Program-made: the position numbers and the translations under genes
The notes under the pieces: model-generated
What the model was told of the DNA's origin: nothing
Database searches by the model: none
What the model saw: the letters and a program-made list of their open reading frames with translations, nothing else
Shown: in pieces, positions 2,282 through 63,506 of the stretch
How the letters are laid out: the number at the start of each line of letters is the position of its first letter
How positions within the stretch are numbered: position 1 is the first letter of the stretch
NCBI GenBank assembly: GCA_900553855.1
Contig: USFG01000003.1
Coordinates: 12,630-76,629, forward strand
Direction of reading: 5' to 3'
Source of the DNA: an uncultured Mycoplasmatota bacterium
GTDB taxonomy: Bacteria > Bacillota_I > Bacilli_A > RF39 > UBA660
DNA length: 64,000 bases

Positions 2282-4519
2282 TTATTGTTCTTCTTTGGAT
2301 ATTTTAACGATTACTTCTCTAGGTTTTGAACCGTTTTGTGGTCCAATTATACCTCTTTCTTCAAGTAAATCAACAATTCTAGCCGCTCTTGAAAAACCAA
2401 CTCTAAATCTTCTTTGTATTAATGAAGCACTTATCTTACCGGTTGTTATGGCAAAATCTACAACATCATTATAAAGAGGATCATCATATTCTTCAGTACC
2501 ACTATTTGCACCAGCCATGTGATTATCAGGTATTTCAGTTAAACTATTATCATAACTAGCAACTTGTTCTTTGGAAACATAATCAATTAATCTTTGAGTT
2601 TCTTCATCAGAAATAAAGTTTCCTTGAATTCTTATTGGAGTATTTTCACCCATTGGAAGATATAACATATCACCTTTACCAAGTAATTTTTCAGCTCCAG
2701 CTCGATCTAAAATAGTTCTTGAATCGATTTGAGATGCAACGGCAAATGAGATACGTGATGGAATATTAGCTTTAACAACCCCGGTAATTACATCGGTTGA
2801 TGGTCTTTGAGTTGCAACAATTAAATGAATACCAGCGGCTCTTGCCATCTGAGTTATTCGCATAATTGAGTCTTCAACCTCTTTAGCAGCAACAAGCATT
2901 AAATCAGCAAGCTCATCTATTATTACTAAAATATATGGCATCTTAGGAACATTTGTGTTATTCTTTTTATTATTTTTTTCGATCAGTTCATTATATCCTG
3001 AAATATTTTTAACGTTGTTATCAGCAAATTTTTGATATCTATTTTCCATTTCAGCAACTATTTTTTGCAATACGACATTGGCTTTCTTAGGATCAGTAAC
3101 AACTGGACATAATAAATGTGGTATTCCATTATAATTAGATAATTCTACCTTTTTAGGATCGACAAGCACTAATTTAATATCATTCGGATTCATTCTCATT
3201 AGGATAGAAGCGATAAAACTATTAATACAAACTGATTTACCTGAACCAGTAGATCCGGCAACAAGTAGGTGTGGCATTTTAGATAAATCAGCGCAACATG
3301 TTCTTCCCATTAAGTCTTTACCAAGAGCAACTAATATCTTAGCATCATTCATTGATTTTGGAACAGTGCTTAATACTTCTCTAATTGGAACACTAGAGAC
3401 ATTTCGATTAGGTATTTCAACTCCAACAGTACTTTTTCCCGGAATAGGTGCTTCAATTCTAACATCTTTAGCGGCTAACGCTAGTGCTATTTCTTTACTG
3501 ATGCTTGTAATTCGGTTAACTTTAGTACCTGCTTTAATTTCGACTTCGAATTGTGTAACAGCTGGCCCTTCATGAATTTCAACTACTTTACCAGTAATTT
3601 GAAAATCTCTTAATACTTTTTCAAGGGCAATACGGTTTTGATTTAAGAAATCACTATTATTAATTTTTTTAGTTTTAGCAGGTTGATTTAATATATCAAG
3701 TGGTGGTAAATGATACTCTCCATTTGAACTGTTTTGAATAGTTATAGGCTCGTTGCTTGGACATTTCTCTTCTTTATTTTCATAGTTTTCGTTATGAAAT
3801 CTGCTAATGTCTTCACTTGATGTGATTATGACTTGTTTGTTAGTATTATTGGCTGGAACTATTTCTTCGTCTTCATCGTCATTATCATCATCTTCTTCAC
3901 CAGTAACTTTCAAAGCCTTGCTAGATTTAACACCGTCACCAAATCCTTTAAAGAATTTAATAATTTTAACTACAATATCTGCAAGTGATACATTAAGAGC
4001 CATTACAACTCCAAAAATAGCAAATACGGCTAAAATGATATAAGTTCCGGTTAAATCAAATAAATTAACAAATCCCCAAGAAAAGAATGCTCCAATTATT
4101 CCTCCACCAGTCTGACTTAAATTTATAAAATTTTCACTATTTATTGTATTCATAAAATTATCTATGGTATTTTGAAATATATCATTATTTTTAAGTACTG
4201 CACTATCAGCAATATAGTTAATATGACTAAGAGCAAGTAACGCAATTAATAAAAGATATAAACCGATTAATCTTGAATTAAAGAATTTAGGTAAATCTCC
4301 TTTAATTATCATATATAGGCCTAGAATAATTAATAATAAAACAAAAATAGCCCACCAAGTTCCCATTAAAAATATACAAAATGATTTAATAAGATGTCCT
4401 ACTGGACCAAACGCTCCTATTCCAATTATTCCAACAAGTACAAGTAATAAACCAATTAGTTCTGAAGAAAATTTAGTTTTACTAGCACTTTCACCTTTTC
4501 TTTTTTTCTTTTTAGCCAT
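2282..4519 (-). CDS. ftsK: DNA translocase FtsK/SpoIIIE
   Basis: N-terminal polytopic membrane domain and an acidic linker (EEDDDNDDEDEE). Motor domain has Walker A GSTGSGKS and Walker B VIIDELADL. C-terminal gamma winged helix SASLIQRRFRVGFSRAARIVDLLEERGIIGP. Confidence 0.92.
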   Translation of the reverse strand: MAKKKKRKGESASKTKFSSELIGLLLVLVGIIGIGAFGPVGHLIKSFCIFLMGTWWAIFVLLLIILGLYMIIKGDLPKFFNSRLIGLYLLLIALLALSHINYIADSAVLKNNDIFQNTIDNFMNTINSENFINLSQTGGGIIGAFFSWGFVNLFDLTGTYIILAVFAIFGVVMALNVSLADIVVKIIKFFKGFGDGVKSSKALKVTGEEDDDNDDEDEEIVPANNTNKQVIITSSEDISRFHNENYENKEEKCPSNEPITIQNSSNGEYHLPPLDILNQPAKTKKINNSDFLNQNRIALEKVLRDFQITGKVVEIHEGPAVTQFEVEIKAGTKVNRITSISKEIALALAAKDVRIEAPIPGKSTVGVEIPNRNVSSVPIREVLSTVPKSMNDAKILVALGKDLMGRTCCADLSKMPHLLVAGSTGSGKSVCINSFIASILMRMNPNDIKLVLVDPKKVELSNYNGIPHLLCPVVTDPKKANVVLQKIVAEMENRYQKFADNNVKNISGYNELIEKNNKKNNTNVPKMPYILVIIDELADLMLVAAKEVEDSIMRITQMARAAGIHLIVATQRPSTDVITGVVKANIPSRISFAVASQIDSRTILDRAGAEKLLGKGDMLYLPMGENTPIRIQGNFISDEETQRLIDYVSKEQVASYDNSLTEIPDNHMAGANSGTEEYDDPLYNDVVDFAITTGKISASLIQRRFRVGFSRAARIVDLLEERGIIGPQNGSKPREVIVKISKEEQ

Positions 4520-4632: not shown

Positions 4633-4661
4633 TTGTTTATAAATTACACTAATAGTATAAT
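4633..4661 (+). promoter_or_regulatory. Sigma-A-type promoter of the small-peptide (candidate type I toxin) gene, copy 1
   Basis: TTGTTT (4633-4638), a 17-nt spacer, then TATAAT (4656-4661). Confidence 0.4.
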
Positions 4662-4736
4662 ACCAACTAAGGAACAATTAGTTGCTGGGTGTCTATCCTC
4701 ACCTTTTAATAATAATAAGATGAGGAGGTGATGCAT

Positions 4737-4829
4737 ATGAGTAAAAGAAAATTTATTATTAAATTTCTAAGATACTTATGTTTCATTATTCTGTGTATAT
4801 CTATTTTGGTATATATAATAAAAAAATAG
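4737..4829 (+). CDS. 30-aa hydrophobic peptide, candidate type I toxin (copy 1)
   Basis: Not in the ORF track because it is too short. Strong SD GAGGAGG (4722-4728) lies 8 nt before the ATG. The product is MSKRKFIIKFLRYLCFIILCISILVYIIKK: basic N-terminus, single TM helix, KK tail. A homologous locus lies at 63321-63410. Confidence 0.5.
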   Translation: MSKRKFIIKFLRYLCFIILCISILVYIIKK

Positions 4830-4941
4830 ACACTTAATTACCAGGAAAGATAATTAAATGTCTTATCACAATATATAAAGGATAGACATTCAGCATAGCA
4901 AACTAAATGTTCCTTTTTTATTTTATGTAAGTTTTCCTTAC
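4820..4941 (-). ncRNA. Candidate antisense sRNA (antitoxin-like), copy 1
   Basis: Starts about 7 nt downstream of TATTAT. Has a 5' stem-loop GTAAG/CTTAC. Ends at a 13-position hairpin (4828-4840 / 4851-4863, one mismatch) plus a T7 run that overlaps the last codons of the peptide ORF. The 5' ~45 nt are ~90% identical to 63207-63255. Confidence 0.45.
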
Positions 4942-4947
4942 GTATTC

Positions 4948-4976
4948 ATAATAGCATATTTTAAAAAAATTATCAA
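4948..4976 (-). promoter_or_regulatory. Sigma-A-type promoter of antisense sRNA, copy 1
   Basis: On the minus strand: TTGATA (4976-4971), a 17-nt spacer, then TATTAT (4953-4948). Confidence 0.4.
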
Positions 4977-4995: not shown

Positions 4996-5874
4996 TTACC
5001 TCATATAAGTAAATATTTTAATTTTATTCATTGGTCCATCACTATTTAATATTTCATTTTCTAATTTTTTTCGATTAAATTTAACCAAAATTTTTTGAAC
5101 ATCAAATCCTTGATTATTTCTTTTTTCTTTTAAAATAACATAAGATGCTGTATCAATTGGATCATTTCCATAAGCCATGCCAACAGCTCTTAAAGTATAA
5201 AAAGATGTATTTTTTCCTTCTTCAAACATTTCAAAATGAACATGTCCCTGTAATATAGAAGCATAGTCAGTTACTTTATTACCATTAAATAATGGCTCAT
5301 TCATCGCTGAAATTAGTCCTTTAGCTTCTTCATTATTTTCTCCTAAAAATTTAATCTTATTTACCATATCAAGTTTTTGTTCTTGACTATTTGTATACAA
5401 AAATTGTTTATATGCATTTTTACCATTATTATAATTTGCTTGATAAGTCCAAGTACTAAATCTATCAAAATCAAATCTACAATCATTGGCAAAATGACAT
5501 AATGCGATTTTCTTTCCACCCAAAGTTAAATCAATAAAATGAGGATATAATTTTATAATTCCTATTTCATAACTACTTAAATTAGATAATGTCCATAAAT
5601 AACTTTCTTCTTTTTCATGAGTAAAAAAACTTCTAAATGGTGCAATTCCTAAAGCTATATAATCTTCACTATTACCTGCTATAGATTTAACATTATATTC
5701 ATTTAATAAATCCATTACTTCCTTAGGGCTAGGTCCAACTCCGAAATTATCACCTAAAGAATATATTTCTGTTATCCCTTTATTTTTTAAATCTTCTAAA
5801 CAAGCAATAGTTGGCACTAACAAACTATGAACATCAGTAATGATTCCAATACATCTTCCAGTATAATTATTCAT
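4996..5874 (-). CDS. Calcineurin-like metallophosphoesterase
   Basis: Motifs IITDVHS (DxH), SLGDNFG (GD), GNSED (GNHE-like, His missing) and GHVHFE (GHxH). Confidence 0.7.
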   Translation of the reverse strand: MNNYTGRCIGIITDVHSLLVPTIACLEDLKNKGITEIYSLGDNFGVGPSPKEVMDLLNEYNVKSIAGNSEDYIALGIAPFRSFFTHEKEESYLWTLSNLSSYEIGIIKLYPHFIDLTLGGKKIALCHFANDCRFDFDRFSTWTYQANYNNGKNAYKQFLYTNSQEQKLDMVNKIKFLGENNEEAKGLISAMNEPLFNGNKVTDYASILQGHVHFEMFEEGKNTSFYTLRAVGMAYGNDPIDTASYVILKEKRNNQGFDVQKILVKFNRKKLENEILNSDGPMNKIKIFTYMR

Positions 5875-62913: not shown

Positions 62914-63125
62914 TTTTCTTCCTTCTTTCTTAACAAAAAAAGGATAGTAACAGGCGTCTTTTAAAGACGGTACCATCCTTGATTTATCTTTTTATAATTC
63001 TTAACGGGAATAACTCGGATATTATTATATCTCTCAAAAGGTAGTAATTATTAATAACTCAATAAGTTTTCACCAACCACTTACTCTCTATGATTTGTTA
63101 ACTAATAATCATGTCCTTTATCACT
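62914..63125 (-). promoter_or_regulatory. T-box riboswitch leader of thrS
   Basis: On the minus strand there is a Stem I AGAGAG box (63089-63084) followed by GGTTGGTGAAA, and Thr codons ACU ACC (63045-63040) in the region where a specifier is expected. The T-box sequence is AAGGATGGTACCGTC (about 62987-62966). A terminator hairpin GGATGGTACCGTCTT/AAGACGCCTGTTACTATCC plus T7 spans about 62980-62934. Confidence 0.8.
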
Positions 63126-63183
63126 GATTTCTTAAATAATTTATCACTTTTTATTTATTTTAGCAATATATCTTTCAAACTTA

Positions 63184-63212
63184 TTGTAAAAAAATTTATA
63201 ATTTGGTATTAT
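63184..63212 (+). promoter_or_regulatory. Sigma-A-type promoter of antisense sRNA, copy 2
   Basis: TTGTAA (63184-63189), a 17-nt spacer, then TATTAT (63207-63212). Confidence 0.4.
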
Positions 63213-63219
63213 GAATATG

Positions 63220-63320
63220 TAAGCAAGACTTACATAAAATAAAAAAGGAACATCTAATTTGGAAGTTAAGATGGTTACCTTAAGTAACGTACCAAAACCC
63301 CTTGAGTTTTGGCTTTTTTA
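63220..63320 (+). ncRNA. Candidate antisense sRNA (antitoxin-like), copy 2
   Basis: Has a 5' stem-loop GTAAG/CTTAC followed by AAAAAAGGAACAT, ~90% identical to copy 1. Ends at stem CCAAAAC/GTTTTGG (63292-63298 / 63306-63312) plus T6, directly abutting the stop codon of the convergent peptide ORF. Confidence 0.45.
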
Positions 63321-63410
63321 TTAATTAGCTACTTTAAATAGTAAGATAATTAATAAAATTATTATTATGAATAAATTGATTATTATAAAATATAACATCT
63401 TTTTGCTCAT
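63321..63410 (-). CDS. 29-aa hydrophobic peptide, candidate type I toxin (copy 2)
   Basis: Not in the ORF track. SD GGTGGT (63420-63415) precedes ATG 63410. The product is MSKKMLYFIIINLFIIIILLIILLFKVAN. The promoter TTGACA-N17-TAATAT lies at 63506-63478. Confidence 0.45.
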   Translation of the reverse strand: MSKKMLYFIIINLFIIIILLIILLFKVAN

Positions 63411-63477
63411 AACTACCACCAGCTTTCTTTTGAAATTTAGTGGTAACCACCAAAACAATTAGTTGTTCCTGTTTAAT

Positions 63478-63506
63478 ATATTATCAAACACATATTCGTG
63501 TGTCAA
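63478..63506 (-). promoter_or_regulatory. Sigma-A-type promoter of the small-peptide gene, copy 2
   Basis: On the minus strand: TTGACA (63506-63501), a 17-nt spacer, then TAATAT (63483-63478). Confidence 0.45.

Follow-up and report, generated by a model that had tools for sequence, protein, structure and literature searches.

Type I toxin-antitoxin systems are hard to find, as their peptides lie below gene-calling limits and their RNAs are not conserved between families. Here, we describe a candidate system of this type in a stretch of 64,000 nucleotides (nt) from an uncultured Mycoplasmatota bacterium of the RF39 lineage (GenBank assembly GCA_900553855.1, contig USFG01000003.1, positions 12,630 to 76,629), which is referred to as the window and is AT-rich (~26% GC). 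An earlier note on this DNA had flagged positions 4633-4976 as a gene for a small hydrophobic peptide with a convergent antisense small RNA (sRNA) and a fold-back leader, and had pointed to a second copy near the other end of the window. Judged by comparison with related sequences, each copy is likely to be a type I toxin-antitoxin-like module that lies on the chromosome and belongs to a family not described before. The predicted module joins the 3'-overlap geometry of txpA/RatA and bsrG/SR4 with an end closure of the hok/aapA1 type. Two control principles that have so far been described in separate families, a 3'-overlapping antisense RNA and 5'-3' closure of the mRNA, would thereby be combined, and antisense binding would have to open the closed mRNA. 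The regulatory topology appears distinctive because the antisense RNA spans the very 3' arm with which the mRNA closes itself into a helix.

Among the closest described systems are txpA/RatA, bsrG/SR4, bsrE/SR5, and yonT/SR6 of Bacillus subtilis, which share with the present modules convergent transcription, a 3'-end overlap, and a small hydrophobic peptide. As here, the Shine-Dalgarno (SD) sequence is partly sequestered in the toxin mRNA, and the antitoxins of these systems promote mRNA decay. To our knowledge, no 5'-3' long-range helix has been reported for Bacillus systems of the txpA/bsrG type, and we know of none in which the antitoxin is a paralogue of the mRNA leader. In Bacillus, most of the loci are carried by prophage-like elements and are single-copy, whereas the modules described here are chromosomal and occur in 8-15 copies. 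Furthermore, the peptides encoded here are shorter (25-31 amino acids, aa) with an N-terminal charge cluster, and neither peptide nor RNA showed sequence or profile similarity to txpA/RatA and bsrG/SR4 in Rfam, Pfam, and NCBIfam. For bsrG/SR4 it was shown that the antitoxin also tightens SD sequestration and that the first contact is a loop-loop interaction (PMC3834814).

For hok/Sok and aapA1/IsoA1, a long-distance 5'-3' closure has been described that yields a translationally inert mRNA with a sequestered SD; the antisense RNA forms an extended duplex via loop contacts, which is cleaved by RNase III, and AapA1 has ~30 aa (PMC5416894; PMC9841398). In both systems the mRNA is overlapped in its 5' part, and the antisense RNA acts only on the 3'-processed, refolded form. 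The predicted antisense RNA of the present module instead covers the 3' arm of the long-range helix itself and would thus compete directly with the mRNA 5' end. Unlike the antisense RNA of Hok/Sok, which is directed at the leader of the processed mRNA with its mok translation initiation region, it overlaps the 3' untranslated region (3'UTR) and the stop codon and has the same sense as the leader. There is also no mok-like overlapping reading frame. Profiles of the Hok/Gef type gave no match in Pfam, and the best NCBIfam score was that of HokA (E = 0.2, 11.7 bits against a cutoff of 89), in one subfamily only.

The par system of Enterococcus faecalis (Fst, RNA I-RNA II; Fst/Ldr superfamily) resembles the module in its Gram-positive host, in transcription that converges on a shared terminator sequence, and in 5' structures that limit translation. 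In par, direct DNA repeats give rise to complementary 5' regions of both RNAs. The repeats here are inverted in the DNA, so that both RNAs carry the same sequence and not complementary ones. The Fst family was not matched in Pfam or NCBIfam searches of the peptides. The search descriptors for toxin mRNAs in T1TAdb were built on SD/anti-SD pairing, 5' and terminator stem-loops, and the 5'-3' long-distance interaction (PMC8594479), and these are the determinants seen in the module, SD/anti-SD pairing and the 5'-3' interaction among them. A scan of the whole window against Rfam at the gathering threshold gave 0 matches, and at E<=10 the locus yielded weak, non-significant matches far below gathering. 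A full-text literature search returned no paper joining type I toxin-antitoxin systems with RF39, and phage genomes, plasmids, and IMG/VR contained no match to the module. The family would fill a gap for an uncultured low-GC Bacilli lineage of human gut metagenomes, and its at least 50 natural sequence variants are a ready mutational map of the RNA structures.

The two copies in the window

Copy 1 consists of the following parts, where ORF denotes open reading frame and SL stem-loop.

4633-4661, plus strand: promoter TTGTTT-N17-TATAAT of the toxin mRNA, predicted start ~4668-4669, at (T)AAGGAACA
4669-4921, plus strand: predicted full-length toxin mRNA, ~253 nt, with its 3' end inferred; first row of alignment A3
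4670-4698, plus strand: 5' arm of the long-range 5'-3' helix and paralogue of sRNA nt 28-62 (RNAalifold consensus, pairwise leader-sRNA alignments)
4669-4676 and 4908-4915: complementary segments AAGGAACA and TGTTCCTT
4690-4698 and 4880-4888: complementary segments TGTCTATCC and GGATAGACA
4689-4734, plus strand: SD-sequestering hairpin, in which TCCTCA (4696-4701) pairs with TGAGGA (4721-4726) (leader minimum free energy (MFE) fold, duplex energies)
4722-4732, plus strand: SD GAGGAGGTGAT
4737-4829, plus strand: candidate toxin ORF of 30 aa, MSKRKFIIKFLRYLCFIILCISILVYIIKK, subfamily A
4880-4914, plus strand: toxin 3'UTR segment that forms the 3' arm of the long-range helix, entirely within the antisense-covered region and followed by TTTTTTATTTT
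4915 (63246 in copy 2): UGUUCCUU segment of the toxin mRNA
4948-4976, minus strand: sRNA promoter TTGATA-N17-TGcTATTAT with extended -10 TG (consensus scan)
4821-4941, minus strand: predicted antisense sRNA, ~121 nt (fold -36.3 kcal/mol, z = -7.5)
4941-4927, 4926-4917, and 4916-4877, minus strand: SL1, A-rich linker, and SL2 of the sRNA
4863-4828, minus strand: sRNA terminator, with the T-run 4827-4821 (T7) overlapping the ORF stop codon

All the elements listed in the earlier note were recovered at the coordinates given there. The plus-strand promoter is present; it was missed by the generic consensus scan because its -35 hexamer matches the consensus at 3 of 6 bases only, and its hexamers stand at a constant distance from AAGGAACA in every subfamily-A copy. 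The SD and the 30-aa ORF were likewise in place, and the minus-strand promoter TTGATA-N17-TATTAT was found independently by the consensus scan. The anti-SD TCCTCA and its partner TGAGGA are present, and the hairpin that they form co-varies in relatives. Two descriptions had to be amended. The hairpin and the T7 run of the sRNA terminator stood, and the tool counts 15 pairs in the hairpin, not 13. Both pairs of complementary leader and 3' segments exist, although not as two short pieces but as a near-continuous helix of ~28 base pairs (bp; 4670-4698/4880-4914). This helix is present in the MFE fold of the copy-1 mRNA (-73.7 kcal/mol, z = -7.7).

The second copy was confirmed at 63184-63506, inverted and with the same parts as copy 1.

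63184-63212, plus strand: sRNA promoter TTGTAA-N17-TGgTATTAT
63219-63319, plus strand: predicted antisense sRNA, ~100 nt, with terminator 63292-63312 plus T6
63321-63410, minus strand: candidate toxin ORF of 29 aa, MSKKMLYFIIINLFIIIILLIILLFKVAN, subfamily B
63239-63471, minus strand: predicted toxin mRNA with the SD hairpin UUACCAC/GUGGUAG and the 5'-3' helix in its MFE fold
63478-63506, minus strand: toxin promoter TTGACA-N17-TGaTAATAT

The copy-2 mRNA folds with -67 kcal/mol (z = -6.9) and its leader with z = -2.9. The repeat that the two copies had been said to share is a 47-nt block, which occurs exactly twice in the window (0 expected by chance from shuffles). An sRNA-strand terminator was found in both copies (1 against 0.1 expected), being in copy 1 the single terminator-like site in 700 nt, where shuffles give 0.1. 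A covariance model of the sRNA 5' domain matched copy 1 with E = 1.8e-12 and copy 2 with E = 7.8e-12 and revealed no third copy in the 64-kb window; the match that ranks next (E = 0.9) falls on the copy-2 toxin leader itself.

RNA structures and the peptide

Relatives were collected with an exact 34-nt stretch of the antisense RNA 5' domain as the search pattern, which gave 62 matches in 51 stretches from ~10 species-level metagenome-assembled genomes (MAGs) of uncultured low-GC Bacilli from gut metagenomes. Within the fetched loci (L numbers below), the covariance model gave 79 matches. All related copies share the convergent 3'-overlap geometry of the two window copies.

In the toxin mRNA, the first ~30 nt of the leader correspond as a paralogue to sRNA nt 28-62 without the SL2 loop and are therefore complementary to the toxin 3'UTR. 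When 52 distinct full-length mRNAs were folded with RNAalifold, the 5'-3' helix was the only consensus structure, with 28 pairs of which 11 show compensatory double changes. In these copies, 97.5% of cells are paired, compared with 33-52% when the partner is slid, and the covariation of 0.267 (0.157 in shuffles) was reached by 0 of 500 shuffles. The hok-like fold-back that had been suspected from two copies is thus the sole structure predicted from the full-length mRNA alignment, and the claim that the second fold-back pair differs in sequence and keeps its placement holds across all 52. Differences between leader and sRNA are strongly directional (A>G 67, C>U 36, G>A 8, U>C 2), so that 103 are wobble-compatible and 10 are not. 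This asymmetry points to selection on pairing in the toxin-sense RNA and speaks against both gene conversion and an inverted repeat maintained at the DNA level. The leader could also form a hairpin of its own (89.8% paired), which has no double changes and contains U·G pairs from the same changes; this fits a design favoring the long-range helix. AACCAACA is an altered form of the 5'-arm motif AAGGAACA that exists as a design only.

The toxin strand has, in the complement of SL2 and the subsequent UUCCUUUUUUAUUUU, what resembles a weak intrinsic terminator (94.8% paired, four double changes). The 3' arm of the helix lies wholly inside the region covered by the sRNA, which makes the sRNA a sequence mimic of the mRNA's own 5' end. 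That 5' end is placed at AAGGAACA because the toxin promoter, TTGACT/C-N17-TGnTATTCT or, in subfamily A, TTGTTT-N17-TATAAT, keeps a constant distance from this motif.

A leader hairpin that pairs the SD with an upstream anti-SD was found in all 8 subfamily representatives (z -1.5 to -4.9). The anti-SD/SD arms vary in concert, namely UCCUCA/UGAGGA, AUUACCUCU/AGAGGUGAU, ACUCC/GGAGU, and UUACCAC/GUGGUAG. Because the columns of alignment A3 are out of register between subfamilies, counts on this alignment were dropped for the SD hairpin, and the duplex energies of cognate and swapped arms were used in their place. Cognate arms reach -14.9 kcal/mol and swapped arms -10.5 kcal/mol (permutation p = 0.0005). 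The motif GAUUACC, common to the SD hairpin and the long-range helix, had given rise to the idea that the 5'-3' helix releases the SD and the sRNA restores its sequestration. This switch was abandoned because the modeled change in accessibility is too small; alternative anti-SD registers keep the SD paired in the partition-function model.

The predicted sRNA of ~100-125 nt is composed of SL1 (GUAAG-loop-CUUAC), an A-rich linker, SL2, and the terminator. Across 57 distinct upstream regions, the TTG of the -35 element is present in 57, the extended TG in 56, and TAnnnT in 57, with a variable spacer; since the search pattern did not extend to this region, its conservation supports the promoter independently. 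SL2 has the form AAGG..CAYYUAA-loop-UUARRUG..CCUU, with 93% of cells paired and 4 doubly changed pairs, and in the first 34 nt of the sRNA only the length of the A-run varies across the six subfamilies. The possibility of a coding sRNA was set aside, as short ORFs on the sRNA strand vary in position and sequence between subfamilies and, by eye, have no well-spaced SD. In two loci (L056:2933-3113 and L048:7293-7460), subfamily-A sRNA genes are broken within the terminator loop, after ...TTAATTATCTTT, by unrelated sequence, which suggests a recurrent insertion or recombination point.

The convergent ORF of 25-31 aa is kept in ~52 of 58 distinct copies, which fall into six divergent subfamilies; the peptide gene is thus conserved in relatives, and the repeat is not a generic intergenic element without an ORF. 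In almost every copy, the peptide starts with M-[S/N/R]-K-[K/R] followed by a hydrophobic helix with a core of ~20 residues. The other subfamilies are only ~16-40% identical to the copy-1 peptide, with M-x-K and the hydrophobic core present in all.

Subfamily A: MSKRKFIIKFLRY.CFIILCISILVYIIKK
Subfamily B: MSKKMLYFIIINLF...FKVIN
Subfamily C: MNKKLLYFIIFNLF...KMIVLK, many GTG starts
Subfamily D: MSKKDCLIFILL...LSK
Subfamily E: MRKIDYLILFLI...NKLI
Subfamily F: MNKRDILIFF...IVLI

Within subfamilies, variable sites at codon positions 1, 2, and 3 number 28, 12, and 47, which is a coding signature. The earlier note had not recognized the peptides as a named family, and they had no match in Pfam, NCBIfam, or the protein databases: of 10 peptide variants looked up as exact sequences, none is contained in a set of 15 billion predicted proteins, and a phmmer search of the copy-1 peptide against 1.84 billion representatives gave 0 matches. 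Some ORFs are decayed, with an ATA start codon in L051a and lost stops or frameshifts in L030a, L043, and L069a. In L058 (5572-5638) an orphan sRNA remains after a precise deletion of toxin ORF and leader, from the mRNA start to the sRNA terminator, and in L038 (2589-2695) an orphan sRNA gene adjoins an ordinary ORF with no peptide gene. Such orphan sRNAs and decayed ORFs may represent the decay products expected of toxin-antitoxin loci.

Proposed mechanism and alternative readings

The type I toxin-antitoxin reading is based on the comparison of ORF, promoters, terminators, SD hairpin, 5'-3' complementarity, and antisense overlap, and each of its structural elements is supported by the comparative data. 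The candidate toxin mRNA encodes a small hydrophobic peptide (<60 aa), the predicted antisense RNA overlaps the 3'UTR perfectly over ~100 nt, and SD/anti-SD pairing and the 5'-3' interaction are cis elements that would block co-transcriptional translation. In the proposed mechanism, a weak sigma-70-type promoter would drive an mRNA of ~230-260 nt starting at AAGGAACA. The leader hairpin would pair anti-SD and SD during transcription, so that the presumably toxic membrane peptide of 25-31 aa could not be translated while the mRNA is being made. The ~100-nt 3'UTR is predicted to end in a weak hairpin and a U-tract. In the finished mRNA, the first ~30 nt would pair with ~35 nt of the 3'UTR, and, as in hok and aapA1, the compact closed form that results is probably a stable one from which no translation takes place. 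From the opposite strand, a stronger extended -10 promoter would yield the sRNA of ~100-125 nt, which is perfectly complementary to the 3'UTR. Its SL2 loop would face an unpaired bulge of the 5'-3' helix, where a kissing-type entry would probably occur. The full duplex would displace the mRNA 5' end, which is near-identical in sequence to the sRNA, and would form a long RNase III substrate, whereby the toxin mRNA may be destroyed before activation.

A further suggestion is made tentatively and is held to be possible rather than probable, namely that the antitoxin RNA acts as a molecular mimic of the mRNA 5' end. Leader and sRNA would then compete for the same 3'UTR, the intramolecular helix would, by virtue of the fixed A>G/C>U differences, be weaker by design than the duplex with the sRNA, and the 8-15 modules could be a cross-talking network instead of independent pairs. 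Such a network is conceivable because the modules have a common sRNA 5' domain and a common mRNA 3' end. If true, this mimic and network topology is not described for hok, aapA1, or the Bacillus 3'-overlap systems.

Several observations weigh against the type I toxin-antitoxin reading. The covariation rests on a few deep subfamily splits, so that the independent events number perhaps 3-6 and not 52. The toxin-strand 3' hairpin has few G-C pairs, contains a C·A mismatch in subfamily A, and failed the generic terminator scan; because of this weakness, the mRNA 3' end is placed only by the selection on pairing. In the partition-function model of the 52 mRNAs, the probability of an unpaired SD is 0.145 with a free 3'UTR and 0.109 with a blocked one. 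Pfam and NCBIfam searches with all subfamilies gave nothing above noise, i.e., no known toxin family was matched. Finally, one strain has a prophage between sRNA and peptide gene, an arrangement that one would not expect with a strictly essential cis overlap.

The last two points would suit a different reading, in which the locus is a small membrane-protein gene with a physiological role (transporter or envelope modulation) that the antisense RNA merely tunes. The location of the modules beside housekeeping genes (ftsK, thrS), and not on phages or plasmids, would suit it as well. We consider it unlikely, because a small genome with 8-15 diverged paralogues, their tandem arrays, and the differing copy number of species at one site are what type I modules of a selfish or addictive kind typically show, unlike a housekeeping peptide; it is also disfavored by the orphan antisense genes, the decayed ORFs, and a control of translation and stability in three layers. 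Even less probable is a mainly trans-acting sRNA, which would use its near-invariant 5' 34 nt as a seed for other targets and for which the peptide-gene overlap would be secondary. Such a role would agree with the near constancy of these 34 nt while the ORFs of six subfamilies diverged strongly, and the complementary 3' end UGUUCCUUUUUUAU is common to all toxin mRNAs, which makes cross-talk between paralogues at least possible. However, part of the invariance stems from ascertainment, as copies were searched for by those 34 nt, and the conserved block is explained locally as the complement of the toxin U-tract, the leader's 3' partner, and the outer stem of SL2. The covariance model gave no further matches in the window, and no search for other targets was made.

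The multi-copy, often tandem occurrence of a ~375-bp unit with an imperfect ~30-bp inverted repeat near its ends also calls to mind a non-coding intergenic repeat of the miniature inverted-repeat transposable element (MITE) or repetitive extragenic palindromic (REP) type, whose terminal repeats would mimic the fold-back while ORF and promoters would be incidental in AT-rich DNA. This is very improbable. The mismatches are strand-asymmetric, with 103 G·U and 10 A·C in the toxin sense, as is not expected of a DNA-level repeat; promoter hexamers are conserved outside the repeat arms, the ORF stays in frame from one subfamily to the next and its variable sites are biased by codon position, and SD and anti-SD co-vary. 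In addition, no transposase was seen, no target-site duplication was noted, and the viral and plasmid collections did not contain the element.

Hosts, strain variation, and neighboring features

The MAGs that carry the module are labeled as uncultured Bacilli, Bacillales/Caryophanales UBA6331, 'Tenericutes', or 'Clostridia'. Seven of them contain 8-15 distinct copies each, often in tandem with a period of ~375 nt; these copy numbers are lower bounds, as they were taken from 8-kb loci. Gene callers never annotated the peptide gene on 20 related contigs.

Copy 1 is flanked by ftsK (2282-4519) and a metallophosphoesterase gene (4996-5874), both on the minus strand, and its neighboring proteins recur on many contigs from human-gut metagenomes. 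In 10 strains, the intergenic region and the window are collinear. Among 11 strains of the window species the sRNA region is unchanged, and the toxin leader carries single-nucleotide polymorphisms (SNPs). Most same-species strains carry GAGTAGG, a weaker SD, in place of GAGGAGG, and GGAATAAATAG instead of the window's GGAACAATTAG in the leader. A C>U SNP in AAGGAACA keeps the pairing with the 3' partner through a G·U wobble.

The modules lie at sites of genome difference, with a prophage in one strain and an ABC-transporter cassette in another species. The prophage (L004:7060-12879, contig ERZ27292550 k141_45613) is inserted precisely where the copy-1 sRNA terminator has its T-tract and the ORF its stop codon (window ~4812) and encodes an integrase, helix-turn-helix (HTH) repressors, ERF, and YqaJ. 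The sRNA gene as a specific phage attachment site was considered and rejected, since relatives of the integrase in IMG/VR flank the AT-rich core TTTTATGnTAnAAAAATTAAA at many unrelated sites, and neither the sRNA terminator nor the junction sequence was found in viral contigs. The integration probably reflects a chance match to a short AT-rich core. At the ftsK/metallophosphoesterase site of a related MAG species (L035:502-3900), two complete subfamily-A modules flank a 2.7-kb cassette of three genes for an ABC ATPase and two FtsX-like permeases, where the window has a single module and no cassette. Similarly, relatives hold 2-3 tandem subfamily-B modules at the copy-2 site near thrS (L061:5865-6660, L044:6102-6890, L070:6311-6750) and the window one, which suggests expansion and contraction of the array.

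ARAGORN detected no tRNA or tmRNA gene in the whole 64-kb window. A T-box leader lies upstream of thrS (62949-63133, minus strand; 52 bits, E = 1.5e-10), and its promoter region is divergent from the copy-2 sRNA promoter at a distance of ~50 nt or less. Its score is below the Rfam gathering score of 93, which is why not a single RNA family came out of the default scan of the window. Three assemblies (L017, L018, L019) break within the shared 47-nt block, 418 nt upstream of ftsK (window ~4937), and the ends of these short-read (Logan) contigs inside the block indicate that the module repeats fragment assemblies.

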